NCBI GenBank assembly: GCA_963748215.1
Contig: CAVVHS010000006.1
Location: 736,001 to 800,000, forward strand
Direction: 5' to 3'
Length of the DNA: 64,000 nucleotides
From: an uncultured Gammaproteobacteria bacterium
GTDB taxonomy: Bacteria; Pseudomonadota; Gammaproteobacteria; UBA9214
The stretch's first letter is position 1. Every line of letters begins with the position of its first letter. The notes below the pieces were generated by a model. That model searched no databases, was not told the origin of the DNA, and saw only the letters and a program-made list of their open reading frames with translations. This document shows positions 5,076-49,656 of the stretch, one piece after another. Made by a program: the position numbers and the translations under genes.

Positions 5076-7949
5076 ATGAAACACACGAAACCCATCGGAT
5101 TACAGCTCGGGTCAGTTACCACGGCGATCTCTTCACTCTTCCGTGACAGGCGCAGTGACGCCTCGACTCAATACGCCATAGCCAGCGGCTGTGCTTCGAG
5201 AAATTCGACAGGCCGCAAGAAAGGCTGTCGTCGCGTGTCAATCGTCGATTCGACCAGAGGCAGGTATCCGCGACTGGCCGCGCTTGCGCGGGTTTTTGTC
5301 GCCGCTTGCTTGTCATGCGCCACAGGCAGCGCATTCGCGGTGATCATCTCCCTTAAAAATGTCGTTGTCCCGATACCACTCGATATCGGCAACTATATGA
5401 ACAACCAGTTCGCGATGGAGCAGCTGGGCAAGGCCCTGTTCTGGGACATGCAGGTCGGCAGCGACGGTGTGCAGGCCTGCGCCACCTGTCATTTCCATGC
5501 CGGTGCGGACAACCGCACCAGAAACCAGCTCAGTCCGGGCATTCTCGCCGGAGATGACCAGTTCGGGAACAACAATGCCGGTATGACTGCACCGGCTCCG
5601 GGTTCAATGCGCGTTGACCAGGAACTGACGCCCGCCCATTTCCCGCTGCACCGCGTGACGAATCAGCATGTGACCGGCGACCCGGCATTTAACCCGTCCA
5701 ACACGGTCAGGGACACCAACGACGTCGTGTCGTCCCAGGGCGTGATGCTGCACGATTTCGTGGATATCGTCCCCGGCAATCCGGTGGATGTCGGCACGCT
5801 CATCCCGGACCCGGCATTCACCACTGCCGGTGGCACCCAGGTTCGTCGTGTGGAGCCGCGCAATACGCCCACGGTGATCAATGCCGTGTTTAATTTCGAC
5901 AATTTCTGGGACGGGCGCGCCAATAATATCTTCAACGGTAACAACCCGTTTGGCGCGGCCGATCCGCGCCAGCACGTAATTGTTAATGCTGCTGGAGTCC
6001 TGTCAACTGAGGAGCTGCGGCTGCGTCAGTCCTCCCTGGCCTCACAGGCCGTGGGACCGCCGCTGAGCGATTTCGAAATGTCCTTTCGCGGCCGCACCTG
6101 GCCCAAGATCGGCAAAAAGATGCTCAGTCTGAGACCGCTTGCCCAGCAGGCCGTTGCAGCAGATGACAGCAAGCTGGGATTCCTGTCACAGGGCGCACCC
6201 GGCGGAACCGGCCTTAACACGACCTATGCCGCCATGATCCAGGCCGCCTTCCCGCCGCAGTACTGGAACAACACCACGGTGAAGGTCACCTTCGATGCCA
6301 ACGGCGTACCCAGTTTCCTGCCGGGGCCGGCTGATCCGCTCAATACCGGTGAGTACTCCCAGATGGAAGCCAACTTCGCCTTCTTCTTCGGTGTGGCGGT
6401 ACAGATGTACGAGGCGACCCTGGTGGCCGACGACTCAAAGTTTGACCGGTTCATGGATGGCAGTGGCGCCCTGACCAACGAGGAAACCCTCGGCATGAAT
6501 GTCTTTAATGCTCAAGGCGGCTGCATCCTCTGCCATGACGGCGGCACATTGAGTGATATCGATGTGACCTTCATCCAGGGCATAGACCCGGTTACCGATA
6601 TCCCGATCCCGTTCAACCAGAACCCGATGGGCGCGAACGAGTTCATGCAGATCTCGACCGGCTTCGGCCTGTATGACGCCGGCTTCCACAACACCGGCGT
6701 GCGCCCGCAGGGCAATCCGGATCCACTGGCGATCGACTTTCTGGCGGTCAATGAAGATGTAGGCCGTGGCGCCACGACCGGCCTGGGCGGCGGTATGACA
6801 GAAGTCTCCCTGTCCAAGGGAATCATCGGACTGCAGAACGAGTTCCCGGGTACGCCGCTGCCGCAAATGCCCAACCTGGATCCCCTGCCTGCGTCCATGG
6901 CGGGCTTTGTGCCGCCGCTGCCGGATGGCTTCCTGCCCTTCGACACCACGCCATTTGCTGCCAGGGTGACCAATTTCGGCGCCTTCAAGACACCCGCCAT
7001 ACGCAACATCGCACTCACCGGGCCCTACATGCACAACGGTGGCCTGTCGACCCTGCGTCAGTTAGTGGACTTCTATGTACGTGGCGGTGATTTTGCCATC
7101 ACCAACAACATGAATTTCGATTCCGAGGGTATTACCGTCCTCCCGCTGTTGCGTGACACGGGTGCGATACCCGGGCTGCCGACCCCTGAGCAACTACGGG
7201 ACGGCCTGGTGCAGTTCATGGTGGCACTGACCGATCAGCGTGTGGCTCAGGAAGCGGCCCCGTTTGATCACCCCGAGCTGTTCGTGCCCGTCACCGGTAC
7301 CGCCCCGGTCTCTCCCGGCACCCGCGATCTGCTGCTGGCCGATGTGAACGGTCCGGGGAATTTCAAGCAAGTGCGTGCCGTGGGTTCCGGCGGCCGTGGC
7401 GCGGTGGGCCTGCCGCCGCTGGGTACCTTCCTGGGTCTGAACCCGCGGAGCGCTGCCCTCGTTCCGGATGCGGATCTGGATTTGATCGCGGACGCCACAG
7501 ACAACTGCCCCGCGGTTGCCAATCCCCTCCAGGAAGACGGGGACGGCGACGGCGCCGGCGATGCCTGTGACGTCTGCCCGATCGATCCCGATAACGACAT
7601 TGACGCAGACGGTGTCTGCGGTGACATCGACAACTGCCCGCTGATCGTCAATGCGGGACAGGAAAATGATGACGCCGACACATTCGGTAATGCCTGCGAC
7701 AACTGCTCGGCAGTCACCAACGCCGACCAGCGTGATACCAACGGCGATGGTTTCGGCAACGTCTGCGATGCGGACTTCAACAACAACGGCATCGTAGACC
7801 CGACTGACTTCACCGCAGCGAAATCGCTGATTGGTCAAGTATCACCAGATCATGATCTGAATGGCAACGGTATCGTGGATCCAACCGATTTCACCTTTAC
7901 CAAGGCAAATATCGGGCAGGCTCCGGGACCCTCGGGGCTCAACCCGTAG
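5076..7949 (+). CDS. Secreted di-heme cytochrome c peroxidase/MauG-family protein with C-terminal TSP3 repeats and dockerin-like module
   Basis: LGKALFWD..VGSDG..ACATCH, RNTPTVINAVFN..NFWDGRA, second heme motif CILCH, GAFKTPAIRNIALTGPYMHNGG. Signal-like segment ending AFA. C-terminal D-rich DNCP repeats and two DxNxNGIVDPTDF motifs. Confidence 0.9.
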   Translation: MKHTKPIGLQLGSVTTAISSLFRDRRSDASTQYAIASGCASRNSTGRKKGCRRVSIVDSTRGRYPRLAALARVFVAACLSCATGSAFAVIISLKNVVVPIPLDIGNYMNNQFAMEQLGKALFWDMQVGSDGVQACATCHFHAGADNRTRNQLSPGILAGDDQFGNNNAGMTAPAPGSMRVDQELTPAHFPLHRVTNQHVTGDPAFNPSNTVRDTNDVVSSQGVMLHDFVDIVPGNPVDVGTLIPDPAFTTAGGTQVRRVEPRNTPTVINAVFNFDNFWDGRANNIFNGNNPFGAADPRQHVIVNAAGVLSTEELRLRQSSLASQAVGPPLSDFEMSFRGRTWPKIGKKMLSLRPLAQQAVAADDSKLGFLSQGAPGGTGLNTTYAAMIQAAFPPQYWNNTTVKVTFDANGVPSFLPGPADPLNTGEYSQMEANFAFFFGVAVQMYEATLVADDSKFDRFMDGSGALTNEETLGMNVFNAQGGCILCHDGGTLSDIDVTFIQGIDPVTDIPIPFNQNPMGANEFMQISTGFGLYDAGFHNTGVRPQGNPDPLAIDFLAVNEDVGRGATTGLGGGMTEVSLSKGIIGLQNEFPGTPLPQMPNLDPLPASMAGFVPPLPDGFLPFDTTPFAARVTNFGAFKTPAIRNIALTGPYMHNGGLSTLRQLVDFYVRGGDFAITNNMNFDSEGITVLPLLRDTGAIPGLPTPEQLRDGLVQFMVALTDQRVAQEAAPFDHPELFVPVTGTAPVSPGTRDLLLADVNGPGNFKQVRAVGSGGRGAVGLPPLGTFLGLNPRSAALVPDADLDLIADATDNCPAVANPLQEDGDGDGAGDACDVCPIDPDNDIDADGVCGDIDNCPLIVNAGQENDDADTFGNACDNCSAVTNADQRDTNGDGFGNVCDADFNNNGIVDPTDFTAAKSLIGQVSPDHDLNGNGIVDPTDFTFTKANIGQAPGPSGLNP
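7465..7949 (+). repeat. TSP3 + dockerin-like module, copy 1 (C-terminal; approximate start)
   Basis: CDADFNNNGIVDPTDFTAAKSLIG...DLNGNGIVDPTDFTFTKANIGQAPGPS. Confidence 0.85.
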
Positions 7950-8099: not shown

Positions 8100-9512
8100 A
8101 TGAAACACCTGAACAGCTTCAGATTACGAATCCTGTCAGCGGCCATGTTGATCTGTCTGACACCGATCGGGCAGGCCGCCTGTCCTGACGACGGTGCAAG
8201 ACCGATGAACATCGGGCCACACAACCCGCAGACCACGTTCCCGCTCTGGGTGCAGGACTCGGAGGGACTGGGGTTGGAAATCTGCCCGGGTACCGATCAG
8301 CTCAACTGTATCTCGGTGCCACCGTTTACACCTGCGAACACCCCGGGATTGACCCAGGCCCAGTACGACCTCTCGGCGCAGATCGGCTCCGGTGAAGAGG
8401 CCTTCTTTGCCTCGGCAGAGGCAAGCATCGATCTCCCCGGTGGGCTGGCCCTCCTCGTGTCTGCTGTCGAGGCGGCCTTCCTGCCCGATTTCCAGGACGG
8501 CAACCAGTTCGCCTTTACCCGGCTGCGTATCCGCATCGATATCCCAGAGGATGGCACCTACGTGGTGACGCATCCCTGGGGCCAGATCAGCTATGACATT
8601 GTCGGTGCCGCCAACAACAGGGATATCAACGATTCCTTTGATATCCCGTTCCTGGCCGACCAGGTGGGCTACCAGGGTCGCCTCGGCCCCATCCTGACCT
8701 GGGACACCTTCCCGGACGACCTGCTGCTTGACCAGTACGGTCCGCCCTTCACGTTTGACCCGCCGTTCGGTGGTAGCGGGCCGGATGGCATCCCCGACTA
8801 CATCGGCACGCTGAACTTCCTGAACCCGCTCACCGGCGGGCCCGAGCACCAGGTCAAAGGCAGCCCGTGTGGCACCAACTTTTTCCGTATCGACGGACCG
8901 AATATCGGCGGACCCGGCATCAATTCCGTCCAGACCGACCTGTTCACCGTCACCGGCAAGGTGTTCAATGGCGCGGTGCTGCCAACACCCCTGGCCGTCG
9001 ACCAGGCGACCTACAGCCGCGCCACGGTTGGAACTGTGAATGTCGGACGTGTGAATGTCTTTGCCACTGCACCTACGATCGCGGATGTCAGCTTCACCGG
9101 TGGGCCAAACATACCGGCCGGAGTACAGGTCATGGCCAATGACGGCAGCAACCGCCATTTTGGCACGGTAGCGCTCACACCGGACGGTGACACAGTGCCG
9201 TCCAGTGTTGATGTGACCGCCGACAATAACGCAAACCCCGTCAACACGCCGACCGTCACCAACGTACCACTGGTCGACCTGGTCACGGTCACCCGCGCGG
9301 AATACGACTTTGCGACCGGTGTCCTGACCATCGAGGCGCACTCGAGTGACCTGGTCGCATCACCGACGCTGTCCGCGCTGGGCCAGAACCTGATCAACGG
9401 GGTGCTGACCACGACCCTGAATCCGGGCGTTGCACCGCCGACGGTCACCGTGACATCCCTCGCGGGTGGTTCTGCCACGCTTCCCGTCACCATCATTCAC
9501 GCCGCGCCCTGA
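8100..9512 (+). CDS. Secreted uncharacterised protein, family A, untagged paralogue, with Ig-like C-terminus
   Basis: Signal peptide (GQA-A). Shares GP.NP...F...V.D....LE.C, EAAF, FTRLRIR, GSP.GTNFFRI and VDLV..TRA motifs with 9533..11398. Confidence 0.85.
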   Translation: MKHLNSFRLRILSAAMLICLTPIGQAACPDDGARPMNIGPHNPQTTFPLWVQDSEGLGLEICPGTDQLNCISVPPFTPANTPGLTQAQYDLSAQIGSGEEAFFASAEASIDLPGGLALLVSAVEAAFLPDFQDGNQFAFTRLRIRIDIPEDGTYVVTHPWGQISYDIVGAANNRDINDSFDIPFLADQVGYQGRLGPILTWDTFPDDLLLDQYGPPFTFDPPFGGSGPDGIPDYIGTLNFLNPLTGGPEHQVKGSPCGTNFFRIDGPNIGGPGINSVQTDLFTVTGKVFNGAVLPTPLAVDQATYSRATVGTVNVGRVNVFATAPTIADVSFTGGPNIPAGVQVMANDGSNRHFGTVALTPDGDTVPSSVDVTADNNANPVNTPTVTNVPLVDLVTVTRAEYDFATGVLTIEAHSSDLVASPTLSALGQNLINGVLTTTLNPGVAPPTVTVTSLAGGSATLPVTIIHAAP

Positions 9513-11447: not shown

Positions 11448-11538
11448 CGTTGGGGGACAGATGGAGCGTTTTGGCAAAGATGACGCAACTGGATATTGAT
11501 TGACTAATTGAAGTATGGGAACAGCGGAGGCACAAAAA

Positions 11539-14500
11539 ATGAAGACATACAAGGTATACGAATATGACGGTTTCAGTGTCACAAATCGTGGTACGGGACC
11601 AGTCAAACACAAACGCTGGCCGTCTGCCCTAATGACGGCGATCAGCACCCTGGCCATCGCTGGCATACTGAGCTTGACCGGCACGAATATGGCCGCTGCC
11701 GCGGTCGACGTGCCGTCGAGCCTGCCGGGCAGCCCGCTGACTGGTTTAGCTGGTCAGACAGGGCCGATATTGTCCTTCGCCCAGAAGATGCTGCGTTTCG
11801 AGGAGTTCGGCGTGCATCCGTTGCCGGCACCCGGCACAACAGCACAAAAGAACTTTCCGTTGCCGGTGGCCACCGCCACACAGCCCGACCCTTGTCGCTC
11901 CAGGCCAGATGCCCTGAACATGGATGCCTTCCTTGATGCGCCGATATGGCCTGATCCGACTGCGCAGGCCAACCTCAGTGAGAATCCGTGGCACACGCTG
12001 ATTGCCCCCTGTGTGGGACTCGATCCAGTGACGTTCACCGGTGTCATGGAAGGGCGTCCGCCGGGCATTAGCTTCGCCCACCAGCGCTGGGACGAGTTCA
12101 AGCCCGTGATATATTTCGAAACCGCCCAAGGCGGGGCGCGGCCAGGTACCGGCAGACTTGATGACGAGCAGAGCCACAACTACTCGGTAGGTGAGTTTGC
12201 GCCGGGGGGGCTGTACCACGACACCACGGGCGGTGGCACGAACGGCACGACCGCCGGTATCGATATCAGATTCCACCCGAACATGCCGATCCAGGAGCCG
12301 CTGACCCTGTGGACCTTCGGTGACGGTACTCTGCCGCCGAAGCTGTTGCGGACCCGTTACGCCCAGCCTATCCTGATGCGCCACTATAACGCGCTGCCGA
12401 TCGATGCCACTGCCAACAACAACTTCGGTGAGCACACCATCACCACCCACGAGCACAACGGCCACAACCCGGGCGAGGTCGACGGCTTTGCCGGCGCCTA
12501 TTTCTTCCCCGGCCAGTTCTACGACTACCGCTGGCCGATGACGCTGGCCGGCTATGACAGCATCAATACCGATGCGTCGGATCCGCGTGCCGCCACCCCG
12601 TGCTCGCCGGGCGAGGTGCTGATGATTTCCAATCCCATCACCCACGTGCCCGAGCCCAAGACCTGCGATCCCACCACCCTCACCGTCAGAATCCCGGGTG
12701 ACTGGCGCGAGACCATGAGCACCCACTGGTTCCACGATCACATGATCGACCGCACCTCGGAGAACGTCTACAAGGGCAACGCGGCAATGATGAACTATTA
12801 CAGTGGTATCGACCGCGGCAAGGAAGGCTTCCTGTGCGATTACGATGACACCCCCGCCCAGGACAACATCAACCTGTGCTTCCCCAGCGGCACCGCGCTG
12901 GACTGGGGTAACCGCGACTATGACATCCAGCTGCTGGTTGCCGCCAAGGCCTGGGCCCCGGTGACCGGTCAGCTGGACATGGCGGGTGGCCTGAATGAGG
13001 ACGGCTTTCTGGGCGACCGGATGACGGTTAACTGGCTGTACGAACCGTACCTGGATGTACGTGCCCGCAAATACCGCTTCCGCATCCTCAACGGCGCCGT
13101 GGCGCGCTTCTTCAAGATCGCCCTCGTGGAGCAGGTGGCCGGAAACGGCGGTGAGTTCCCCGGCCCGGCCGGTTCGAACGTGTCCTATAACCAGGTTTCG
13201 TTCCACATGATCGCCAACGACGGCAACATCCTGGAGCACGCGGTGCCGTTCCCCAATGCGTCCTCGCCTGAGGGCTTGCCGATCCAGTCCATTGCCGAGC
13301 GCTTTGACATCATCGTCGACTTCAGCCAGTTCGCAGTGGGTACCAGGCTGTACCTGGTCAACACCCTGGCGCTTCGATGACGGCCGGGGTCCCAAGGAGG
13401 TCGTCCCGCTGGCTGACATCCTCAGTGGAGCCTATGCGCCCGTGCTTGATCCCCTCCCCTGTATCGACAGCTGCTGGTCGCATGACCCGGTCGTAAAACG
13501 CTTCATGGAGTTCCGGGTGCAGGCGCCTGTCGGTCCCGATCTGAGCATGAATCCGGCCGACTACGAGGTGGGTGGGAAAACGATGATCCCGCTGGTGCAG
13601 TTCACCCAGGCAGAGCTCGACTCGGCCATCCACCGCACCTTCCATTTCGGTCGTGGCGGCTTCCCCGGTCTCGCGGCAACCGACGGTCGTCCCACACCAT
13701 GGGGTATTGTCACCGACGATGAAATCGCGGCCACCACGCCCGATGGCTGTGTCGCTGACCCCGGTGAGATCCTGTGCACGCGCAATGCGGACATCAACCG
13801 TGTCTCGGCCGCCCCGGAGACCATCGGGGGTGGCGTGGAGATCTGGCATATCACCGGTGGCGGTGGCTGGGGTCATCCGGTGCATGTCCACTTCGAGGAG
13901 GGCCAGTACCTGGCGCGTGATGGTGCGCTTCCGCCCCCGTGGGAGGTGGGTGCGCGCAAGGACATGTACCGTATTTCGGGTCTGAATGACCCGAGCAGTA
14001 GCCAGACGATCGATGTCGTGATCCGCTTCCGCGAGTTCGCCGGTACCTTTGTGGAGCACTGTCACAACACCACGCACGAGGACAAGGCCATGCTGTTGCG
14101 CTGGGACAACGAACTGCCGGGGCAGACGGTGCGTATCCCGACACCGCTTCCGACCTGGGAAGGCGTCGGCTACATCAGCGCGACCAATCCGGACCCGCAT
14201 ACCGGGGAAACCGCGGTTCTCGAGCTGGCGACCATCAAGACCGGCAATGTTGCGGTGGCGACGCTCTCCGACCTGGATGGCGACCTGGTCCTCGATACGG
14301 TAGACAACTGTGTGCTGGCTGCCAACCCGGGTCAGGCGGATGGCGATGGTGATGGCGTGGGCGATGCCTGCGACAACTGCACCCTTGTCGCCAACGCCAA
14401 CCAGCGGGATACCGACGCGGATGGTTTCGGCAATGTCTGCGATGGCGACTTCAACAACAACGGTCGCCTCGGGAACGGGATCGTGGACCCGACGGATTTC

Positions 14501-14689
14501 ACCCTGCTGAAATCACGCATTGGTGTACCGCCGATCCAGAGTCCTTTGCCTCCAGTCGGTAGCGGGATACTTCAACCCGTCGCGCCGAGTCAGGACCTGA
14601 ACGGTAATGGCATTGTGGATCCGACTGATTTCACCCTGCTGAAATCGCTCATTGGTTCACAACCGGGCCCCTCGGCGTTAGTCCCGTAG
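11539..14689 (+). CDS. mcoA: McoA-like multicopper oxidase with C-terminal TSP3/dockerin-like module; one frameshift near 13372 (ORFs 11515..13380 and 13256..14689)
   Basis: All four Cu motifs are present across the two frames: THEHNGH, HWFHDH, HPVHVH, HCHNTTHEDKAM. Removing one base at about 13372 (gcg-C-ttc) gives the continuous NTLAFDDGRGP. RBS GGAGG before ATG 11539. Followed by an SCO-cytochrome c gene, as for Pseudomonas mcoA. Confidence 0.8.
14270..14689 (+). repeat. TSP3 + dockerin-like module, copy 3 (with insertions)
   Basis: CDGDFNNNGRLGNGIVDPTDFTLLKSRIG...QDLNGNGIVDPTDFTLLKSLIGSQPGPS. Confidence 0.85.
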
Positions 14690-14942: not shown

Positions 14943-16052
14943 ATGAGGCTGCTTATGAGTTGTATCCGTTTCACCGCAAACCCTGGGGGCGCTATCGCCG
15001 CCGCTCTCCTGCTCTTTTCCACCCTTTCACTGTTGGCTGCCAATCCAGCCGGCGCGGCGCCGCAGCAGCAGTTTCCCAATGTCCCCCTGACAAACCAGGA
15101 CGGCGAGACGCTGCACTTCTACGATGACGTTATCAAGGGCAAGGTGGTGTCCATTAATTTCATGTTCACGAGTTGTGGAGACTCCTGCCCGCTGGAGACA
15201 GCCAAGCTGCGCAAGGTTCAGCAGCAGCTCGGCGAGCATGCCGGGAAAGACGTCTACATGTATTCCATTACCGTCGACCCCGACCGCGACACGCCGGCGG
15301 CACTCAAGGCGTACATGCAAAAATTCAACATCGGCCCCGGCTGGCAGTTCCTGACGGGAAAGAAGGCAGACATCGATCAGATACGTAAAAGGCTGGGCAT
15401 GTACAGTGAAGAAGCGGATGAGCTCAGCGATCACGCAATCAACTTCGTGCTGGGCAATGAGGCGACCGGACAGTGGTTGAGGCGTACCCCCTTTGATCTG
15501 CCCGAAACACTGGTTTCCGTACTGCTTGGCCGCCTGCAACAGTACCGGCTGGCTTCGTCAGCGGCTGCAGCAAGACCGAGCTATGCGCTGAGCCGCCCCA
15601 TGCCGGCTGCACGCCCGGGTGAGGATCTGTTCAATACGCGCTGCACGGCCTGCCATACCATCGGCCAGGGCGATAAACTGGGCCCGGATCTGCTGGGTGT
15701 TGTCAGTAAACGGGACCGTCAATGGCTGATCCGCTGGCTGCAGGAACCCGATGTGATGCTGAAGGAAAAAGATCCCCTGGCAACAGCGCTCTACAACCAG
15801 TATGGCAAGGTGCCGATGCCGAATGTGAAGCTGACTGACAAGAATGCGCTTGATCTGATCGAGTACATGCAGGCGGAGACCCTGCGTGTGAACGCACTAT
15901 CCGAGGATACGCCCGCGCAAGCAGACAGCCTGGAAAGCATCGACACGACAGAACCGGCAGTCCGCACAGACGGGAGTCCGCCTCCGGGCAACGAGATACC
16001 GCAGGAACAGGCGCGGGCGGATTCCGCACCGGTAAAGGAGATTAGCAATTAA
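14943..16052 (+). CDS. SCO1/SenC copper chaperone fused to a c-type cytochrome
   Basis: FTSCGDSCP (CxxxC), YSITVDPDRDTP, conserved His (SDH); CTACH heme motif with distal Met (VPMP). Confidence 0.92.
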   Translation: MRLLMSCIRFTANPGGAIAAALLLFSTLSLLAANPAGAAPQQQFPNVPLTNQDGETLHFYDDVIKGKVVSINFMFTSCGDSCPLETAKLRKVQQQLGEHAGKDVYMYSITVDPDRDTPAALKAYMQKFNIGPGWQFLTGKKADIDQIRKRLGMYSEEADELSDHAINFVLGNEATGQWLRRTPFDLPETLVSVLLGRLQQYRLASSAAAARPSYALSRPMPAARPGEDLFNTRCTACHTIGQGDKLGPDLLGVVSKRDRQWLIRWLQEPDVMLKEKDPLATALYNQYGKVPMPNVKLTDKNALDLIEYMQAETLRVNALSEDTPAQADSLESIDTTEPAVRTDGSPPPGNEIPQEQARADSAPVKEISN

Positions 16053-16890: not shown

Positions 16891-17409
16891 ATGAAATATC
16901 ATGTCGTAGTATTTGTTTCACTCATTGCGTTACCGTCTATTTTCACCAGTTGCTTTGGTCACGAGAATCCGGGTGCACCCGAGAGCTGTAAATGCTTCCG
17001 CGGAGATTAAGCAGCCGACTGAAGCAAAGACTGCAACTGATAGCCAGGAGGTTCAGCAGCCGACGCAGCCAGGAGACAATGCTAGCCCGGAGGTTCAGCA
17101 GCCGAGCACAGCCAAGGCAGCAAATGATAATCCAAAGCTTGAGAAGCCGGCTGAAACCGAGGCAATGGAAGCTGCCATAGCGTACCTGAACCATGATGGA
17201 CAAATGACTATAAAAAAGTCAGAGTTTATCGCATGGGGTACGTATAGTGAAAAAATGGTCGTACTGGCCAGATGAAATTGCGTTTGACCTATAAAACCAA
17301 GGGATCTGATAAGACAAGGCAGAATGAATATGCTGTGAAGATCTCCAAAGACAGCGACGGTAAATGGATAGCCACACAGTATTGGGCGTGGAGAACCGAC
17401 TTCAAATAA
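16891..17409 (+). pseudogene. Lower-GC putative lipoprotein gene with about two frameshifts
   Basis: MKYHVVVFVSLIALPSIFTSC (lipobox-like) from 16891; the middle lies in ORF 16913..17275 (EVQQP repeats); the tail MKLRLTYKTKGSDKTRQNEYAVKISKDSDGKWIATQYWAWRTDFK* ends at 17409. One break is in an A6 run near 17252. Confidence 0.55.
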
Positions 17410-17450
17410 CGACACGTGGCTGATTTTTTGCGACAGCAACATATTTAATG

Positions 17451-22246: not shown

Positions 22247-22257
22247 TGGAGAAAATC

Positions 22258-26995: not shown

Positions 26996-27092
26996 GATGG
27001 GGAGGCAGGTGAAATCCTGATAAAGGAAAGTCAGTACCGGGCAGCACCAGGGATGGAAGCTGCAGTAGAAACATAACGTAAAGAGGTTGCTT

Positions 27093-29229: not shown

Positions 29230-29570
29230 TAAAATCTAGCAAGTCGCTACCAAACTGCCGGTCATCAAGCACCCGCAGCTGGAGCAGTCAACATCACAAC
29301 GACCCAGACGACGGGCAGAAATTGAGTAACGTCGCAAACCTAGGGGGAGATGACGATGCGAAACGCTGCATCGAGGAAGCAGTATTACTGCCTTCGCAAC
29401 GGCACCCTGTTAGGACTGGCTCGTCCAGCCGACCGGCTGACCCGATTACCGACCGGCACACGCAACGATTTTTTCACTTCGATAGCGCTTCACGGTTGCA
29501 CGCTGACCCGGATTCCATACCCAAACCCCCGATTCACACGACACCTCGAGTTATGCGAGGAGGACAACCC

Positions 29571-32500: not shown

Positions 32501-35500
32501 ACGAGCTCGACGACTACCAGGTGCGCACGCCGACCGACATCATCGGTCAGCACATCCACCTGCCCAAGTGGGACCTGACCACCGCCGACGGCGCCGCCAA
32601 CGGCTGGAACTATGAAGACGGCACGCTCTCGCCCGGTTCGGTACGCGAGCGTATCCGCGCGCTGAACTGTTTCGCCACCGGTGACAGCGGCGATCCCGCC
32701 CACCCCTGCCCGGCAGAGATTCCAGTTGGAGGCATCGGCAGCCACGTTGCGGGCACCGGCTCTGGCGGATTGATCCCGCCCACCACCCTGGCACCCCACG
32801 CACATCCCTTCTGGGCGAACCAGGCGGCCACGCTGGGCGGCGCCTTCCCGGAACTCTGGGAGGGCACGCGGGTGACCCAGCAGCGCTGGTTCTTCGACCC
32901 GGTGGTCAACACCGAAGGCGTCGACCGGGGACTGGGCATCATTTTCACCCACGACCACTACGGGCCTTCGACCCACCAGCAGATCGGCCTGTACGCGACG
33001 GTGCTGGCCGAGCCGGCCGGTTCCCGCTGGGTGCACAACGAGACCGGCGTGCAGCTGGGCCAGGGCCCCGATGGCGGCAATCCGAGTGGCCGCATCGATG
33101 GCGGACCGACCTCCTGGCAGGCGGTCATCACCCCGCCGGGTGGCGGCTCGACCGTCAATCCGCCCGGACAGCTGGAGCAGTACCGGGAGTTCTACTTCGA
33201 GTACACCGACTTCCAGCACGCCTACGAGGCCGGCGTGTACGTGGGTGCCGACCAGCAGGGCGTACCGATCGGCGGGCCGGTCGGCAACAACCCGGCGCTG
33301 ACGGGCATCCTCGATACCGGCAATGCAGATTTCTCTGGCCTGCCCGGGGATGCGTTCCGCTTCGCCATCAACCCGCCGAATCGCGAACAGGTCACACCCG
33401 TGTTCCCCGACCTGGTGCTCGAGGCGGTCGCGGGCCTGTTGCCGGGTTGCCCCGCCGGCGGACGTCCCTGTCCAACCGCCATCGACGTGCAGGATCCGGG
33501 TATGTTCTCGGTCAATTACCGCAATGAACCCGTTGCCCTGCGCGTCTTTGACCCGCTCGCCATTGGGCCGGACAACAAATTCGGCGCCCAGAGTGACCAG
33601 CGCGCCGGCGACCTCGCCCTCGCGTTCGAGACGCGCAGTGACCGTCGCCTGTTCGTGGAAGGCGCCAGTTTCGGCAGCATCGACGGCAACCTGATCCCCG
33701 GCTATGTCCTGAACGAGATGCCGGTAGTTGGCGATAACATCAACGGCACCCTCTTCCCGCCGCACATCAACGCCGGCGGCGTGAATGGCGGCGATCCCTT
33801 CACCCCGATGATGCGCGCCTTCGCCGGCGACCTGATCCGGGTAAAGATGCAGGCCGGCGGCGACGAGGAAGAACACGCCGCCAACATCCACGGCGTGAAA
33901 TGGCTGTACGCCGGTTCCGGCCATGGCGAGGCCCGCAACTCGGGCTGGCGCGGCAGCCAGTCGGGCGGTATTTCCGAGCAGTTCACCCTCAAGGTACCGC
34001 TGGTACCGCTGAAGGGTAATGTCGGGCGCCGTCTCGACTACCTCTATACGATGGATGCCTCCACCGACGGCTGGTGGAGCGGCATGTGGGGCATCCTGCG
34101 CGCCTACGAAAACCGCACCCAGGCAACCGACCCGCTGCAGGGCGGCGGTCCGCTGGTGGAACTGACCAACAATCCGCCGCCGCAGACGGGGCTGGTGCAG
34201 ATCACCAACGCGGCGGCCTTCGACGGCGCCTGTCCGTTGTTTAAACCCGATGGCGTGACCCCGACCACGGTGCGCGCGTATGACATTACCGCGGTACTGG
34301 CCAACGACGTCCTGCCCGGCAATCCGAATGTCATCATTCAGGACATCTGCCCGGGTGCGGGACCACAGATCTGTGGCGGAGCCGGTCATGTCGGTGTGGC
34401 ACCGGATCCGCTCGGCGGCACACTCGTGTACAACCCGCGCACCGACCAGATCGGTGGTGGCGTCTGATGATCTCGGCCGCGGTGCCGCTGCCGATCCACA
34501 ACGGCCCGATACACGACCCGACCGCGATCCTGTATGTCCATACCTCGGATGTCGTCAAGGATGCCCTCGGTAATCCCATCGGCCTCAAGCCGAACACGCC
34601 GGTCGAACCGCTGGTACTGCGTGCCGCCGCGGGTGACTGTATCAGGGTCACGCTGCGCAACGAACTGCCTGTGCAAATGCCGGAGCTGCCGACCTATACC
34701 AGCCTGCTCGGCGCCAACAAGCGCGACCGGCTGGGTATCGAGGGCTCGACCACCTTCCAGACCAACCTGCTGGCCCCGTCCAACCGTGTCGGCCTGCATG
34801 CGCAGATGCTGGCCTATGATGTGTCGCGCGCCGACGGCACGGTGGTGGGTGAGAACCACACCCTGGCACAGGTCATCGGGCCAAACAGCGCCCCGGCCAC
34901 GTTCGAGTGGTATGCCGGCGATCTAGGCTTCACCCGCAACGGCGCGGGTCAGTGGACGCTAACTGCCACGCCGGTGGAGTTCGGGGTGTCGAACCTGGCA
35001 CCGGCGGACAAAATCAAGCACGGGATGAAGTCGGCGGTCGGCCAGCTGATCGTCGAGCCGCTGGGCTCCAGCTGGATCGAGGACGGCGTCAATGAAAATC
35101 CGACGGTCCCCGTGGCCGATCCGCTGCGCTTTGCCTATGCACCCGGTGCGACCCGGCTCGAGGCCTCGGTCATCAAGAACGGCGCCCGCATCTTCCGCGA
35201 CCTGTCGGTGGTGCTGACCAAGCAGCAGACCCAGTACTACGCGGACAGCCAGCCGGTCGAACACCTCAACGGTGAAGGAGCAGGCATCCCCGAGGATCCA
35301 CAGGAAGCCACCGGCATGGCGATCAACTACCAGATCGATCCGCTCTGGTTCCGGCTCGGCATCCTGCCGAATTCGCCCTTCGGTAACGACATGACACCGT
35401 CGAGCTTCGGCAATGCGGTGCCTCCGAATGTGGACGGGACCCAGTTCGACATCTACAGCAACAACCGGCCGCATCCGCCCGGCAGCCCGGAGGTCGGCCC

Positions 35501-36209
35501 CATCGGCGAACCGTCCACGCCGGTGTTCCTGGCACGGCCCGGTGAACCCCTGCGCGTGCGCCTCGGCGTACCGCATGGCACCAACCGCGGGTCCACCTTC
35601 AGCCTGCATGGCCACACCTGGCAGCGCGACCCGTACGTGTGTCCGGATGATGCGCGCAACGGTCTGGTTGGCGCCTGTCTGCCGACCAGTGTCGGTTCAC
35701 AGGCCATCGGGCACAACCCGCAGGGCTTCTACCAGGGTGCGCAGGAAAGCATCTGGTCCACCGCACACTACGACTTCGTGCTGGCGAGTGCCGGCGGTGC
35801 GGGTGGGATCCTGGGTGATTACCTGTTCCGCGATACGGGTTCCTTCGGTAACGCCTCCGGGCTGTGGGGTATCGTCCGGGTCGAGAACCGACCCGATGCC
35901 GATGGCGACGGTATCTTCGACGATGTGGACAACTGCATCAACGTGGCTAATGGACCGCTCGCCGGTCCGGTGAATGGCCTGAGTCAGTGCGATACCGACG
36001 GCGATGGTATCGGCAACATCTGCGATGCGGACTTCAATGGCAATGGCATCGTGGATCCGACTGATTTTACGCTCCTGAAGTCCACCCTGGGGTCGACACT
36101 GGCGCCGAATCAGGACCTGAACTGCAACGGCATCGTGGATCCCACCGACTTCACGACCATCAAAGCGTTGCTGGGGCAGCCGCCGGGCCCGTCCTGCTGC
36201 GGAGTCTAG
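29571..36209 (+). CDS. mnxG: Large MnxG-like multicopper oxidase (about 2200 aa if joined) with C-terminal TSP3/dockerin-like module; breaks near 32325 and 34465
   Basis: RBS GAGGAGG before ATG 29571; signal peptide (VQA). Cu motifs occur in MnxG-type permuted order: HVFHLHNH, HCHFYPHFAQGM, HIH, FTHDH, plus EEH..IHG and SLHGH. Joins ORFs 29322..32615, 32266..34467 and 34467..36209. The downstream gene set matches Pseudomonas mnx operons. Confidence 0.82.
35895..36209 (+). repeat. TSP3 + dockerin-like module, copy 6
   Basis: CDADFNGNGIVDPTDFTLLKSTLG...QDLNCNGIVDPTDFTTIKALLGQPPGPSCC. Confidence 0.85.
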
Positions 36210-36574: not shown

Positions 36575-38551
36575 GTGCACTCCAGCTCTACAAACCGCCG
36601 CTTCTGGTGGCCTTTCATCCTGTTGTTACCCTTATTCCTGGCACTGATCACCGGCGGCCGCGCTGCGGAACCAGAGCCGGTAAAGCCCGATACGGGCCGC
36701 CTGGTCAGACACGGCATTGTGGTCGACTTCGAGGCACTGCCGCTCGCAGGCGACGACCAGGGGCTCATGGAAGGGCAACTGGCCGAGATCCGCTTCCGAC
36801 TCACCGAGGAGGCGACCGGCGCACCGGTCCGGGGTATTACGCCCGGCGCCTGGATGGACATGGGTGAAGTCATCCAGGGCCAGTCAGGGGCCGAGCAGAA
36901 AACCTGCAAGGAAAAGATCGCGCTCTATCTCAAGGGTGTGGTTGGCATCCGCCCCATGATCGACCTCAACAGCTACTATGTGCTGATCCTCAACAAGGAA
37001 CCGAGTATCTCCGTCGTTGATCCGCTGGTTTCGATGGTGGGCAAGACCAGCACCCTGGCGAGCATCCGTCTCGAGGCCGCGGGGGCCGACTGGGCCAGCA
37101 GCGCGGACGAAAAGCTCGTCTTCGTGAGCATGCCCAGGGCCGGCAAGGTGGCACTGCTGGATACCAGCAAGTTCAAGGTGACCGACAACATCCCGGCCGG
37201 CACGGCACCGACCCGGGTGGCGCTGCAACCTGATGGACGTTATCTCTGGGTCGGCAACAATGCGCCAACCGCGGATGCCAGCGGTGTCACCGTTATCGAC
37301 ACCGACACGCTGGAATCCCTGGCCACCCTTCCCACCGGGGCAGGACATCACGAGATCGCCTTCTCCGCCGACAGCCGTTATGCCTTCGTGAGCAATCGCG
37401 ATGCCGGCACGGTCAGTGTCATCGACGTCCAGTCACGCGCCGTGCTGAAGGACATCGAGACCGGCCCGCTGCCTATTTCGCTCGCCTATTCAGCGCTGTC
37501 CCGGGCGCTGTACGTCGCCGACGGCAAGGACGGCCACATCAGCGTGATCGACACCGAGCAGTTCGAGGTGCAAAAACGTATCGAGGCCAGTCCCGGTCTG
37601 GGACCGTTGCGTTTCGCACCGGACGGCCGCTATGCCGTGGTGGTCAACCCCAGCCGGGAGACGGTCTACGTGATCGACGCGGCGGCCAACGAAATCGTGC
37701 ACCGCATCGCCGTGGCCGGCCAGCCCTACCAGGTCGTGTTCAGCCGTGCCTTTGCCTACGTGCGTCCACTTGCCAGCCAGAGCATCTCCATGATCGACCT
37801 AAGCAGTCTCGGCGCAGGCAAGCAACCGATCGTGAAAAGCTTCGAGGCGGGCAGTGTAGCGCCCAGCCTGGCCGGTGACCTGTCACTGGCCGACTCGCTG
37901 GCCGCGACCAGCAGCGAGGCGGCCATGTTCATCGTCAACCCCGGTGACAACACCACCTATGTGTACATGGAAGGCATGAACGCACCGTCCAGCAACTACT
38001 CGGTGCGCGGTGCCAGCGCGCGCGGCGTGATGGTGGTTGATCGCAGTCTGCACGAAATCGAGCCGGGGCTGTTTTCCGCCAAGGTGAAGCTTCCCGCCCC
38101 CGGCCGCTACGATGTGGCGTTCCTGCTGGATACGCCGCAGATCCTGCATTGTTTTTCGGCGGAAGCCCGGCCCAATCCCCTGATCGATCACGTCACGGCG
38201 CCGCTCACCATTGAATACCAGCTGCAAGACCGGCGCATGCATGTCGACACCCCGGCGCCACTGCGCTTCCGGCTCGTCGATTCCCATACCGGCCAGCCCG
38301 TGACCGGGTTGAAGGACGTGGGCGTGCGCTACTTCCGGGTTCCAGGCACTGACCGCAAGGAGATGCGTGCCACAGAGGAAGGTGACGGCGTCTACCGGGC
38401 CGATCTGGCACTGTCGCATCCGGGCGCCTATTACGTGCACGTGGGTGTGCCATCCGCGGGCATCGCCTACCAGGATCTGCCCTACTTCACTCTGGTCGCC
38501 GTCCAGGCCGCCGCCGGTTCACCGCGTGTGCCACAGGAGACGTCGCCATGA
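36575..38551 (+). CDS. YVTN/cytochrome d1-type beta-propeller protein with C-terminal YtkA/FixH-like domain
   Basis: Signal peptide; repeated G..P..vA.spDGR..yV.N...gTVSVID blades; C-terminal E.gdGvYrA...PGaY.V.V. Confidence 0.85.
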   Translation: MHSSSTNRRFWWPFILLLPLFLALITGGRAAEPEPVKPDTGRLVRHGIVVDFEALPLAGDDQGLMEGQLAEIRFRLTEEATGAPVRGITPGAWMDMGEVIQGQSGAEQKTCKEKIALYLKGVVGIRPMIDLNSYYVLILNKEPSISVVDPLVSMVGKTSTLASIRLEAAGADWASSADEKLVFVSMPRAGKVALLDTSKFKVTDNIPAGTAPTRVALQPDGRYLWVGNNAPTADASGVTVIDTDTLESLATLPTGAGHHEIAFSADSRYAFVSNRDAGTVSVIDVQSRAVLKDIETGPLPISLAYSALSRALYVADGKDGHISVIDTEQFEVQKRIEASPGLGPLRFAPDGRYAVVVNPSRETVYVIDAAANEIVHRIAVAGQPYQVVFSRAFAYVRPLASQSISMIDLSSLGAGKQPIVKSFEAGSVAPSLAGDLSLADSLAATSSEAAMFIVNPGDNTTYVYMEGMNAPSSNYSVRGASARGVMVVDRSLHEIEPGLFSAKVKLPAPGRYDVAFLLDTPQILHCFSAEARPNPLIDHVTAPLTIEYQLQDRRMHVDTPAPLRFRLVDSHTGQPVTGLKDVGVRYFRVPGTDRKEMRATEEGDGVYRADLALSHPGAYYVHVGVPSAGIAYQDLPYFTLVAVQAAAGSPRVPQETSP

Positions 38552-39516
38552 ACCTGCGCCTGACAGGCGCACTCTGCGCGCTCGCCCTGGGGTTCGGCAC
38601 GTTGCCGGGGGTACTGGCCGATGCCTTCGGCCTGGCGGCCCGGGTCAACGGCATGGAGATCTCCAATGAAAAGCTCGAGAAGAGCTTTGAGGAATACCTG
38701 CGCGAGAACAATGTGAACGTGGGCGCCATTCGCTATCCCGATCGATACAAGGCCATGAGGCGGGAGACGCTCGATTTGCTGATCGACCAGCTACTGCTGT
38801 GGCAGGCGGCACAGGACAGCGACATGGTTGCGACACCCGCTGAAGTCAGCGCCGCGTTCGATGACATGCGTGCCCAGTTCAAGTCGGCGGAGAACTTTCG
38901 CGACCGGCTCACTGCCGAAGGTTACAGCGAAGACAGTTACCGGGAGCACCTCAAGCAGCTGGTCTCGGCCAGCAAGTACCTGGAGAGCCTTAGCGGCAAC
39001 ATTGAAGTGAGCGATACGGAAGTACACGACTTCTATACCCGGAACCCGGATAAATTCCAGCTGCCCGAAGTCATCCGGGCGCGCCACATCCTGATCAAGC
39101 TGGATGCCTCGTTGTCCGATGAGGAGCAGCGCGACAGGCGCAGGCATGTCGAGGACATCCTGGCACAGGCACGCGCGGGTGCCGACTTCGCCCGGCTCGC
39201 CACCGAGCATTCAGAAGATACCAGCGCCGCCCACGGTGGTGACCTCGGCTACTTTCCGCGCGGAAGAATGGTAAAACCGTTCGAGGACGCCGCGTTCGGT
39301 CTGCAGCCGGGCGAGCTGTCCGGGGTAGTGGAAACTCCCTTCGGCCTGCACATCATCAAGCTGGAGGAACGTCACGCGCCCAAACTGCTGCCCGAAGCCG
39401 ATGCCCGCGAACGGATAACCGGGTATCTCACGGCGCTGAAGCGTGAACAGGCCGTATCCACCGGCATGGAAACGCTGCGTTCCAGCGCCAAGATCGAAAT
39501 ACTGGTGCCGTTATGA
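38548..39516 (+). CDS. SurA/PpiC (parvulin) peptidyl-prolyl isomerase
   Basis: ARVNG.EI, IRARHILIK, DFARLA.EHSED, GGDLGYF.RG.MV.PFE.AAF, VETPFGLHIIK; ATGA overlap with the upstream gene. Confidence 0.92.
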   Translation: MNLRLTGALCALALGFGTLPGVLADAFGLAARVNGMEISNEKLEKSFEEYLRENNVNVGAIRYPDRYKAMRRETLDLLIDQLLLWQAAQDSDMVATPAEVSAAFDDMRAQFKSAENFRDRLTAEGYSEDSYREHLKQLVSASKYLESLSGNIEVSDTEVHDFYTRNPDKFQLPEVIRARHILIKLDASLSDEEQRDRRRHVEDILAQARAGADFARLATEHSEDTSAAHGGDLGYFPRGRMVKPFEDAAFGLQPGELSGVVETPFGLHIIKLEERHAPKLLPEADARERITGYLTALKREQAVSTGMETLRSSAKIEILVPL

Positions 39517-40244
39517 AACATTCTGCCGCACGGAGCGTAACCGGATTGCCGAAGCCCTGCTTGCGCCCTGCGCACCTGCCGGTCGCGCTGCTGACGCTGG
39601 TCCTGCTGGCGCCGCCGGCCGTGCGGGCGGCTGAGGAGCACCACCATCACCAGCACCCCGAGCCGGTTTCCGGCGCCGACCCGCACGCCCACCACCGGGC
39701 CATGCTCGAGCAGGCACAGCCGGGTCCGGCCACCGCCACCGATGTCACGCTGCACAATGCGACGCTCCTGACCCAGAACGGCGCGCAGGTGCGGTTCGCC
39801 AGCGATGTCATCGCTGACCACATCGTGGTAATGGACTTCGTCTACACCACCTGTACCACCGTGTGCCCGGTGCTGTCCGCGGTCTTCGGCCAGGTGCAGG
39901 AACGTCTGGGCGACCGGCTCGGACAGGAGGTGTCGCTGGTATCAGTCAGTGTTGACCCCGTCCGCGACACACCGCCACGACTCAAGGCCTACGCCGCCCG
40001 GCATCGCGCACAGGATGGCTGGGTCTGGCTCACCGGGGATAAATCGCAGGTGGACCAGGTGCTGACCGGGCTTGGTGCCTACGCGCCGCGTTTCGAGGAC
40101 CATCCGGCCATGGTCCTGGTGGGCGATGGACGTTCCGGGACCTGGATCCGTTTCTTCGGCTTCCCGGGTCCGGACCAGATCCTGGCCACGGTGGATGAAC
40201 TCTCGGCGGCCCGCCAGGCGGCCGCCCAATCCCTGCAGGAGTAA
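39513..40244 (+). CDS. SCO family protein with His-rich N-terminus
   Basis: EEHHHHQH..DPHAHH; YTTCTTVCP; SVSVDPVRDTP; EDH. Confidence 0.9.
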   Translation: MKHSAARSVTGLPKPCLRPAHLPVALLTLVLLAPPAVRAAEEHHHHQHPEPVSGADPHAHHRAMLEQAQPGPATATDVTLHNATLLTQNGAQVRFASDVIADHIVVMDFVYTTCTTVCPVLSAVFGQVQERLGDRLGQEVSLVSVSVDPVRDTPPRLKAYAARHRAQDGWVWLTGDKSQVDQVLTGLGAYAPRFEDHPAMVLVGDGRSGTWIRFFGFPGPDQILATVDELSAARQAAAQSLQE

Positions 40245-40250
40245 TGCACC

Positions 40251-40868
40251 ATGCGCACGATTTTCAGCTTGTTACTCGCCCTGGCCTGGCTAGCGCCTGC
40301 CGTGTCCGCAACACCACCGGAGACTACGGGCGGCGCGGCAGCGACACCCGCTGCGACAACCCAGGCCGACGCTGACGAGGCCTCGAGGCAGTACTTCACG
40401 GACCTGAAGCTGGTCACCCAGGACGGGAAGGATGTGCGCTTCTTCAGCGATGTCCTGCAAGACAAGATCGTGCTCATCAATTTCATCTTCACCCACTGTG
40501 AGGGTGCCTGCCCGCTGATGACCCGCAAGCTCAAATCGAGCCGCGACCTGCTCGATGCGTCACTGCGTGCCAGGGTGCATTTCGTCTCCATCAGCATCGA
40601 CCCGGAACGTGACACGCCGGCCGCGATGAAGGCATTTGCCGCCCAACACGAACTCGCCGACGACAAGAACTGGCTGTTCCTGACCGGTGATCCGCAAAAC
40701 GTGAACCAGATCGTCAGGAAGCTCGGCCAGTACACGCCGGACGTCGAGGAGCACTCGACACTGGTGCTGGCCGGCAATGTCAGGGATCACTACTGGATGA
40801 AGATCTCGCCCATGGTGCCGGCGGAGGGTATCGCGGACAAGCTGCGCCTGCTGGCACAGGAGCAGTGA
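40251..40868 (+). CDS. SCO family protein
   Basis: FTHCEGACP; SISIDPERDTP; EEH. Confidence 0.9.
   Translation: MRTIFSLLLALAWLAPAVSATPPETTGGAAATPAATTQADADEASRQYFTDLKLVTQDGKDVRFFSDVLQDKIVLINFIFTHCEGACPLMTRKLKSSRDLLDASLRARVHFVSISIDPERDTPAAMKAFAAQHELADDKNWLFLTGDPQNVNQIVRKLGQYTPDVEEHSTLVLAGNVRDHYWMKISPMVPAEGIADKLRLLAQEQ

Positions 40869-49656: not shown

Follow-up and report, generated by a model that had tools for sequence, protein, structure and literature searches.

Seven genes in a 64,000-nucleotide stretch of DNA from a sediment gammaproteobacterium carry one and the same module, attached to a peroxidase, to multicopper oxidases (MCOs) and to proteins of no known family. The question raised by this locus is what purpose such a shared tag serves and which partner it might bind. 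The stretch, hereafter called the window, is G000:C6:736001-800000, i.e. part of contig C6 of a host genome of 3.52 Mb (9 contigs, about 60% G+C). In an initial annotation the module had been regarded as a dockerin that assembles the oxidases into a cellulosome-like extracellular complex. The analysis described here points instead to monovalent surface display: the tagged enzymes are probably held singly, by putative binding, on cohesin anchors that are processed via an exosortase, and not on a cellulosome-like scaffold.

A dockerin-like module in ten copies

As initially annotated, the module consists of TSP3 repeats and a twin F-hand part, ends in PGPS and occurs on seven genes of the window; both the translations and a genome-wide motif scan agreed on this point. 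The scan covered 49,320 six-frame open reading frames (ORFs) of at least 40 amino acids (aa) from the whole 3.52-Mb genome and detected the module in ten ORFs and nowhere else. Profile A2, which represents the twin F-hand part, retrieved ten full-length copies (E ≤ 6.6e-28), followed by a 19-position remnant with an E value of 0.1; recurrence of the module is thus not due to chance. It is not confined to the window, given that three more copies are located outside, yet nine of the ten tagged proteins are encoded within 75 kb. Its description as a C-terminal tail holds for six genes of the window but not for 46732-49656, where it is N-terminal and directly follows the signal peptide. The tagged genes are the following (window positions, unless a contig is given):

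5076..7949 (+), di-haem cytochrome c peroxidase (CCP/MauG/MbnH-like) with 3 TSP3 repeats, module 7698-7946; CCP_MauG 75.7, TSP_3 48.8, Dockerin_1 17.9 bits
9533..11398 (+), family A, tagged copy, module 11147-11395; TSP_3 41.0, Dockerin_1 24.5 bits; A2 E 4.4e-36
11515..14689 (+), MCO ('McoA-like'), one gene, module 14372-14686 in the C-terminal ORF 13256-14689; Cu-oxidase_2 30.9 bits; orthologues of 932-1060 aa are intact
22231..24519 (+), family B, tagged copy, module 24268-24516; TSP_3 28.0, Dockerin_1 23.4 bits
24758..26945 (+), third family B copy, pseudogene, module 26691-26942 in ORF 26325-26945; tblastn match in frames 2, 1 and 3 with 2 TAG inside
29322..36209 (+), MnxG-type giant MCO in three ORFs, module 35928-36206 in the C-terminal ORF 34467-36209; NF041487 1138.6, 748.6 and 376 bits
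46732..49656 (+), MCO with N-terminal module 46909-47160 after the signal peptide; Cu-oxidase_2 77.9, TSP_3 33.8, Dockerin_1 22.3 bits (residues 85-128)
C6:725025-727934, upstream of the window, module-tagged S8 subtilase with three Calx-beta domains
C6:710897-717001, upstream of the window, 2034-aa multihaem cytochrome with five cadherin-like repeats, module internal
contig 8, module-tagged 1902-aa beta-lactamase/DUF11/LamG/GDSL protein

The ten cargo proteins thus comprise three MCOs, a peroxidase, a cytochrome, a protease, an esterase-like giant and three proteins of no known family.

Each module begins with one to three TSP3 repeats (D-x-D-x-D-G-x-x-D-x-x-D-N-C), which are followed by the twin F-hand part. 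The first F-hand repeat reads C-D-A-D-F-N-N-N-G-I-V-D-P-T-D-F-T-x-x-K and is separated by a short linker from the second, D-L-N-G-N-G-I-V-D-P-T-D-F-T-x-x-K; the module ends with ...G-x-x-P-G-P-S. In both 12-residue loops (D-x-N-x-N-G-I-V-D-P-T-D-F), positions 1, 3, 5, 9 and 12 are occupied by acidic or amide side chains. The loops are invariant or nearly so in all ten copies, in the tandem arrangement of F-hand repeats that is characteristic of type I dockerins; in one copy, loop 1 is longer by 5 inserted residues and the linker by 17. The modules of genes 9533-11398 and 22231-24519 differ at 3 of 249 nucleotides, all of them third codon positions. As these genes are otherwise unrelated, the module must have been copied from one to the other recently.

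The proposal that the module is a dockerin is supported at the level of sequence, where it is dockerin-like, with Pfam scores on either side of the cut-off. Dockerin_1 (PF00404, gathering cut-off 22.9 bits) scored 17.9-25.8 bits in the seven window proteins, four of which passed, and TSP_3 exceeded its cut-off in five of the seven; in a six-frame search of the genome, eight of the ten module copies were above the Dockerin_1 cut-off. Further, profile A5 (built from 40 modules comprising the TSP3 and the F-hand part) was compared with the sequences of the PDB. The TSP3 part matched COMP and thrombospondins, outside of which the best matches were dockerins. The F-hand part matched solved dockerins over both repeats (8x39_A, 3.9e-9, labelled in the PDB as the dockerin of a 'serine protease'; 2y3n_B, 6.6e-9; 2jnk_A, 2.4e-7; also 2mte_A, 1daq_A, 2vn6_B and 1ohz_B, the last with 8.6e-5), most of which outranked calmodulins (best calmodulin 4.8e-5). 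An AF2 model of the TSP3-dockerin tail, made from a single sequence without alignment, had a pLDDT of 34.5, too low to judge the fold. On sequence grounds the shared tail is therefore best described as dockerin-like, i.e. as a putative non-cellulosomal type-I-like dockerin in which one to three TSP3 repeats precede two 12-residue Ca loops, each with a helix.

The genome encodes four additional dockerins that are closer to the canonical type (up to 47.8 bits), at C2:114952-118146, C7:362768-364429, C7:420540-420959 and C3:123318-123761. Two of them are carried by small ORFs, the others by an RHS-repeat protein and by a protein of 554 aa that contains TSP3 repeats.

Cohesin-fold proteins with a sorting tail

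The cohesin-fold proteins that a dockerin would lead one to expect are encoded in two intact copies, one 12 kb ahead of the window and the other 4.8 kb beyond its end. They are listed here together with the secretin gene of the window that is referred to below:

C6:723693-724253, cohesin 1, 186 aa: signal peptide, one cohesin-fold domain and VPLPA-CTERM tail
C6:804760-805350, cohesin 2, 196-aa paralogue; A1 E 5.2e-60
1585..3831 (+), GspD secretin; Pfam Secretin 161.8 bits, Secretin_N, GspD N0

The gene of cohesin 1 is located directly downstream of that of the dockerin-tagged S8 protease. Cohesin 1 was the single match when the genome was searched with Pfam Cohesin (PF00963, gathering cut-off 24.1 bits), the matching region being C6:723837-724094 with 23.8 bits (24.2 bits with neighbours); the paralogue C6:804760-805350 gave no match in that search and was recognized by the cohesin-family profile A1. 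A possible third cohesin/PEP-CTERM gene at C6:115249-115766 is spread over two reading frames. The gene of cohesin 2 is immediately preceded by the decayed dockerin remnant (C6:805435-805791).

An AF2 model of cohesin 1 made with 60 homologues reached a pLDDT of 90.4 and a pTM of 0.77, and according to this model the domain adopts the nine-stranded beta-sandwich of the cohesin fold. All PDB matches listed by Foldseek were cohesins, apart from an adhesin domain at rank 45; the best had an E value of 1.8e-9 and target-normalised TM scores of 0.71-0.78, and many came from solved cohesin-dockerin complexes. A search for homologues of the cohesin yielded 3619 matches with E ≤ 1e-3 among 8000 candidates scored. 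Cohesin 1 also has a weak resemblance to the flocculation protein PepA (29.5 bits, cut-off 80). Its C-terminus matched VPLPA-CTERM (TIGR03370) with 26.8 bits (cut-off 25.35) and was just under the PEP-CTERM cut-off (PF07589, 18.6 versus 20.7 bits). The attributes of an exosortase substrate are all present, namely a VPxP motif, a membrane helix, a basic cluster and an exosortase in the genome (Exosortase_EpsH, 177.8 bits).

Searches with Pfam Cohesin, A1 and A4 (the cohesin domain alone, 24 domain segments) retrieved from this genome single-domain ORFs of 186-203 aa and one split remnant. Neither a multi-cohesin ORF nor a protein combining cohesin and dockerin was found by these three profiles, by which a very divergent scaffoldin could be missed. 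The cellulosome-like scaffold that had been envisaged is not supported by these searches, and the presence of single-cohesin proteins only argues for monovalent docking rather than for one complex. Proteins composed of a signal peptide, a cohesin domain and a VPLPA/PEP-CTERM tail are the most likely, predicted partner of the tag. When the cohesin domain (A4) was modelled in complex with the dockerin (A5) and 2 Ca, the score was 0.20 (mark 0.32; without controls), a value that has no bearing on binding in either direction.

Genes of a type II secretion system (T2SS) separate the upstream cohesin gene from those of the oxidases: GspE and GspF (C6:728296-731466; T2SSE 483.7 and T2SSF 197.9 bits) and, within the window, GspD. 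The T2SS is the likely export route of the folded metalloenzymes.

Co-occurrence of tag and cohesin in other genomes

One fixed set of 301 genomes of the class was examined for the dockerin subtype (A2, E ≤ 1e-8) and for the cohesin family (A4, E ≤ 1e-5); the latter profile replaced a single-sequence query with the cohesin domain, which had matched 2 of the 301 genomes only. The dockerin subtype was present in 13 genomes and the cohesin family in 19. Cohesins were found in 12 of the 13 genomes with the subtype versus 7 of the 288 without it (Fisher p 7e-16). In the exceptional genome, which is 81% complete, the module is located on an 81-aa ORF near the start of a contig. The 12 co-occurring genomes fall in 11 families. 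In 11 of them a cohesin gene and a tagged gene share a contig and are 135 bp to 7.7 kb apart; apart from G000, the distance is below 1 kb in six genomes. Eight of nine cohesin ORFs of the relatives end in the same type of sorting tail, and the ninth is cut by the contig end. When five of the cohesin-only genomes were tested with PF00404, dockerins were detected in three, adjoining the cohesins in G182.

Individual loci display the same proximity. In G124, which belongs to another family, cohesin, peroxidase-dockerin, family B-dockerin and MCO genes follow each other in one row. In G212, of the same genus as the window's host, the cohesin gene is directly upstream of a cytochrome gene with an N-terminal dockerin. 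At L024 and L026 the tagged operon and a cohesin gene are found within about 5 kb.

Breadth of cargo

A profile search for the module yielded 4452 cluster representatives with E ≤ 1e-3 among 1.84 billion, 284 of them with E ≤ 1e-10. Of the best 150 database matches, 72 have PGP[SA] among their last 20 residues. The domains of 53 of these 150 matches, those of at least 280 aa, were scanned (45 with the terminal PGP[SA] motif). Dockerin_1 was detected in 39 (E ≤ 1e-3) and TSP_3 in 36, next to Peptidase_S8 (4), FG-GAP (3), Calx-beta (2), purple acid phosphatase (2), heparinase, LamG and others; no Cu-oxidase was among the 25 cargo families shown for these 53 proteins. In the class genomes the cargo included an apiosidase-like hydrolase, a galactose-oxidase-like Kelch protein, LamG, S8, LVIVD, RHS, CotH and polysaccharide-lyase-like proteins. 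The module is N-terminal also in L011, L015, L020 and L021. Among cultured organisms, an isolate of Methylomonas methanica carries the tag.

The idea of an oxidase-specific tag therefore had to be given up: three of the ten copies in this genome and most cargo elsewhere are on unrelated proteins such as proteases, glycosidases, lectin-like and repeat proteins, and the tag is thus generic. We propose that it is placed by module shuffling at C-terminal, N-terminal or internal sites of its cargo. The initial annotation had held that docking would be refuted by a generic tail on many unrelated secreted proteins or by a module that neither folds as a dockerin nor binds a protein; the first half of this holds, although diverse cargo is also normal for dockerins.

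Proposed surface display and alternative explanations

In the mechanism that we favour, the tagged enzymes would be exported across the inner membrane and then out of the cell, probably by the T2SS whose genes lie between those of cohesin 1 and of the oxidases. The cohesin proteins would be processed by the exosortase of the genome and thereby reach the outer surface or the exopolysaccharide (EPS) layer, and Ca-dependent dockerin-cohesin binding would then hold each enzyme singly at the cell surface. The tag would have been put on a conserved metal-oxidase operon, that is on the di-haem peroxidase, one copy each of families A and B, the MCO and the MnxG homologue, and also on a multihaem cytochrome outside the operon. 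Since the oxidases would be tagged for surface display, oxidation of Mn(II) or another metal would occur in the surface matrix. Binding, Ca dependence, localisation and substrate are inferred throughout. As a tentative extension, PEP-CTERM single cohesins may constitute a general, hitherto undescribed display system of Gram-negative bacteria that captures TSP3-dockerin-tagged proteins in exopolysaccharide, and one group of sediment gammaproteobacteria may have recruited it for a surface metal-oxidising set (MnxG, two further MCOs, the di-haem peroxidase, two protein pairs and the giant multihaem cytochrome).

A number of observations weigh against surface display on cohesins. Three of the seven window proteins are below the Dockerin_1 cut-off, the dockerin fold of the module is a prediction from sequence, and cohesin 1 itself scores 23.7 bits, just below the Cohesin cut-off. 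The four more canonical dockerins could be the real partners of the cohesins. The loops read V-D-P-T-D-F here and V-N-F-A-D-L in most relatives; in solved complexes these positions contact the cohesin, and binding specificity may therefore differ from that of the relatives. The p value of the co-occurrence is overstated, relatives not being independent, and at E ≤ 1e-8 the A2 subtype is missing from 7 of the 19 genomes that have a cohesin. Another four genomes carry the tagged operon, and in two of these no cohesin was matched (G302 and G304, the latter small with 2.2 Mb). Finally, a cohesin was found in only 4 of 27 module-bearing loci (8-kb flanks, named genomes). Such a proportion would be expected of an anchor shared by many cargo genes, but it shows that individual tagged genes do not as a rule adjoin a cohesin gene.

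The module might alternatively be a generic Ca-binding tail without any protein partner that attaches enzymes to exopolysaccharide, to mineral or to the outer membrane, or only stabilises them, the cohesin-like proteins having another role, e.g. binding of floc polysaccharide. The very diverse cargo would be in line with this view, as would the TSP3 repeats, which are Ca-binding and match COMP/thrombospondin, and the weak PepA-like score of the cohesin protein; PMC9850573 assigns PepA to the EPS matrix and, in the available part, mentions neither cohesin nor dockerin. We nevertheless consider a partner-less tail unlikely. The module co-occurs with cohesins (12/13 versus 7/288) and lies close to them in 11 of 12 genomes, the predicted fold matches the cohesins of solved cohesin-dockerin complexes, and diversity of cargo is what dockerins normally exhibit. 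A cellulosome-like scaffold gathering the oxidases in one stoichiometric multi-enzyme complex would account for a single tag on ten proteins, nine of them encoded so close to each other, for the conservation of the tagged oxidase operon and for the untagged/tagged paralogue pairs, which suggest hetero-oligomers. It is very unlikely in view of the cohesin ORFs, which are all single-domain, and of the lack of multi-cohesin and cohesin-plus-dockerin proteins in the three profile searches.

About equally improbable is that the tag is received by the operon's own 244-aa PEP-CTERM protein (16083-16817 and 28215-28982). This protein has a PEP-CTERM-type tail and closes the tagged operon twice here and again in L024 and L026, but a single query with it matched 1 of the 301 class genomes (G000) as compared with 13 for the tag, and its hhalign probability against the cohesin profile was 0.2%. 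The least credible explanation is that the conserved ...G-x-x-P-G-P-S end represents a C-terminal sorting or secretion signal. Although PGP[SA] is terminal in nearly half of the best 150 database matches, no membrane-spanning stretch follows PGPS, and the idea is contradicted by module copies that are N-terminal (one protein here; four loci elsewhere) or internal (another protein here). Display of single enzymes on cohesin anchors hence remains the reading that we prefer.

Composition and conservation of the oxidase operon

The tagged genes of the window are interspersed with untagged ones:

8100..9512 (+), family A, untagged paralogue; no Pfam/NCBIfam match
14943..16052 (+), SCO1/SenC copper chaperone fused to cytochrome c; SCO1-SenC 88, Cytochrom_C 33.6 bits
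16083..16817 (+), operon-specific 244-aa PEP-CTERM protein; PEP-CTERM-type tail
20324..22246 (+), family B, untagged paralogue; no Pfam/NCBIfam match, hypothetical proteins only in the protein Atlas
27087..28187 (+), second SCO1/SenC-cytochrome c fusion; SCO1-SenC 80.5, Cytochrom_C 31 bits
28215..28982 (+), second copy of the 244-aa PEP-CTERM protein; 75% identical to 16083-16817
36575..40868 (+), accessory genes: beta-propeller/YtkA protein, SurA-like peptidyl-prolyl isomerase (PPIase) and two SCO1/SenC proteins (Pfam)

The order of the operon is peroxidase-tag, (family A, family A-tag), family B, family B-tag, MCO-tag, SCO1-cytochrome c and PEP-CTERM protein. It recurs at 57-84% identity in L024-L027, contigs of metagenome-assembled genomes assigned to gammaproteobacteria or to a 'delta proteobacterium', where the family A pair of L026 is far more diverged (about 30-33% identity). 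Including G124, in which the cohesin gene opens the row, the tagged oxidase operon was thus found in five other genomes, and its expected recurrence in related genomes was substantiated. Orthologues of the peroxidase 5076-7949 occur in L018 and L024-L027 at 59-79% identity; with the MbnH family it scored 98.2 bits, which is below the cut-off. Families A and B are always present as an untagged copy followed by a tagged one, an arrangement conserved in four other genomes (the tandem family A pair also in L025 and L026). These untagged/tagged pairs would suggest heterodimers docked via one subunit.

The designation 'MnxG-like' proved justified, given that the three pieces of 29322-36209 are collinear with positions 1-832, 978-1447 and 1466-1894 of NF041487. 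Their summed score of 2263 bits is below the equivalog cut-off of 3100, and the gene is accordingly regarded as an MnxG homologue and not called an equivalog. The module lies beyond the last NF041487 position and is therefore not part of the family as modelled.

Distant homologues of family B (40-50% identity) were found at 14 loci (L028-L041) of Nitrospira, Planctomycetota, Thermoanaerobaculia, Bdellovibrio and 'Bacterium MnTg02', with neither module nor cohesin. The redox core hence predates the tag, which was added in one lineage. On a Nitrospira contig (L029) family B is preceded by a homologue of the di-haem peroxidase, and the two appear, from their gene neighbourhood, to be a wider redox pair that extends beyond the tagged lineage. 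Family B proteins of G023 have other C-terminal extensions, repeat-rich by eye.

In a single-query search, the 244-aa PEP-CTERM protein was detected in G000 alone among the 301 class genomes; it is found at the operon end in L024 and L026 too. Membership of the cohesin family was considered for it by sequence and rejected (hhalign against A4). The protein Atlas placed it among PEP-CTERM/hypothetical clusters; a neighbouring cluster has CBM_4_9 in 17% of its members, no more than a lead.

Four SCO1/SenC-type genes are located within 26 kb (14943-16052, 27087-28187, 39513-40868), two of them fused to cytochrome c, so that copper-delivery genes are unusually dense around the oxidases. The SCO1 chaperones of the operon are untagged. 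Two giant secreted multihaem cytochromes are encoded 19-33 kb upstream of the window (C6:703146-717001, L001), one of 974 aa with a PKD domain and the other of 2034 aa with cadherin-like repeats and the internal dockerin; a PPIase gene lies between them.

Frame breaks and other features of the window

Several genes of the window are interrupted, and contigs of 4 runs from two studies were compared with the window. The frameshift of the MCO gene near 13370 is due to a single extra base, which is absent at 13370/13371 in all four runs; likewise, the first break of MnxG is caused by an extra base at 32328 that is absent in all four. Both are therefore assembly errors or variants. A second MnxG break lies near 34467. 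The two family B copies with module had both been taken for genes with a signal peptide, which applies to 22231-24519 but not to 24758-26945. In the latter a signal peptide is missing, and contigs of X1, X2 and X3 bridge its two frame breaks gap-free; as the breaks are reproduced by independent contigs, this copy is considered a pseudogene. A decaying locus as the cause of the frame breaks was accordingly rejected for the two breaks absent from all runs and kept for the third family B copy. Other apparent pseudogenes of the assembly may share the cause found here, namely single extra bases.

A third, frame-broken copy of the 244-aa PEP-CTERM protein is located at 18455-19147; 2 bases at 18774 are absent in three runs, and this copy may be intact in other assemblies. 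At window positions 17302-18635 contig depth was 100-440 in the four runs, compared with about 2-20 elsewhere, with many joints and loose ends. This segment is part of a 3.5-kb low-GC (0.53) gap without large ORFs and looks like a short repeated or mobile element. A 667-aa VPLPA-CTERM protein (37.3 bits) with degenerate N/G/L/T-rich repeats and no known family is encoded at 43439-45442 (-), adjoined by a sulfotransferase gene (42567-43445). No Rfam family was detected in the window.

Implications and comparison with known systems

How bacterial Mn(II) oxidases are retained extracellularly is poorly understood, and for one lineage a docking tag with an identifiable anchor offers an answer that can be tested directly. 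The oxidases have conserved partners that can now be named, the di-haem peroxidase and families A and B. If the pairing of PEP-CTERM cohesins and TSP3-dockerins is true, it would provide a function for many 'hypothetical' PEP-CTERM proteins and extend cohesin-dockerin biology to surface display in Gram-negative bacteria, and the cell would position mineral-forming chemistry by plug and socket. A small, orthogonal pair of this kind could also serve enzyme display.

In the literature searched, which was without most subscription journals or supplements, no publication joining PEP-CTERM, cohesin and dockerin was found; exosortase and dockerin together led to a review of anaerobic methanotrophic (ANME) archaea only. 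Titles and abstracts retrieved for dockerin and MnxG were unrelated, and no such system was described for dockerin and multicopper oxidase or manganese oxidation in the parts of this literature that were available. Dockerin-annotated laccase-like genes of Geobacter are mentioned in the accessible part of PMC6199725. Cohesin/dockerin proteins outside cellulose degradation, e.g. those of ANME archaea, are discussed in sections of PMC5244752 and PMC9012536, the former of which suggests a role in cell contact or 'MHC adhesion'.

The proposed system resembles the clostridial type I cohesin-dockerin pairs (1ohz, 2ccl, 2vn5/2vn6) in that a twin F-hand tag is found on many different secreted enzymes and the partner is a cohesin beta-sandwich; these entries are among the top Foldseek matches, and their dockerin chains are matched by the module profile. 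In addition, the two repeats of the module are nearly identical, a trait of dockerins with a dual binding mode. Unlike in clostridial cellulosomes, no multi-cohesin scaffoldin was found here, the host is Gram-negative, the anchor is of the PEP-CTERM/exosortase and not of the SLH/sortase type, and TSP3 repeats precede the dockerin. The cargo consists mainly of redox metalloenzymes instead of cellulases, and none of the ten cargo proteins is a plant-cell-wall glycoside hydrolase with dockerin as in cellulosomes.

The likeness to MnxG/McoA of Pseudomonas putida GB-1 (NF041487) extends over the full model length, which is matched collinearly, and includes nearby SCO1/SenC genes and an adjacent T2SS. 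P. putida requires such a secretion system in order to oxidise Mn. The gene of the window differs by its score, which is below the cut-off, and by the TSP3-dockerin tail beyond the model end. With PepA-type PEP-CTERM matrix proteins the cohesin proteins share a signal peptide, a PEP-CTERM-type tail, an exosortase and the expected EPS location (available parts of PMC9850573 and PMC12188702); they differ by a cohesin-fold passenger that is genomically tied to dockerin-tagged genes, and the PepA match is weak.

The closest parallel is found in single cohesins and dockerins on cellulose-unrelated proteins, as represented by 2xdh (Archaeoglobus) and 2jnk among the structure and sequence matches. 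Non-cellulosomal modules of this kind were reportedly treated by Peer et al. in 2009; 2jnk/2ozn are glycosidase pairs of Clostridium perfringens. What sets the present case apart is a predicted bacterial pair of PEP-CTERM cohesin and TSP3-dockerin, its genome-wide co-occurrence and a tag on MnxG-type and other MCOs. We thus regard the system as a variant of the non-cellulosomal cohesin-dockerin systems that is new in its combination of a PEP-CTERM cohesin with a TSP3-dockerin on metal oxidases.

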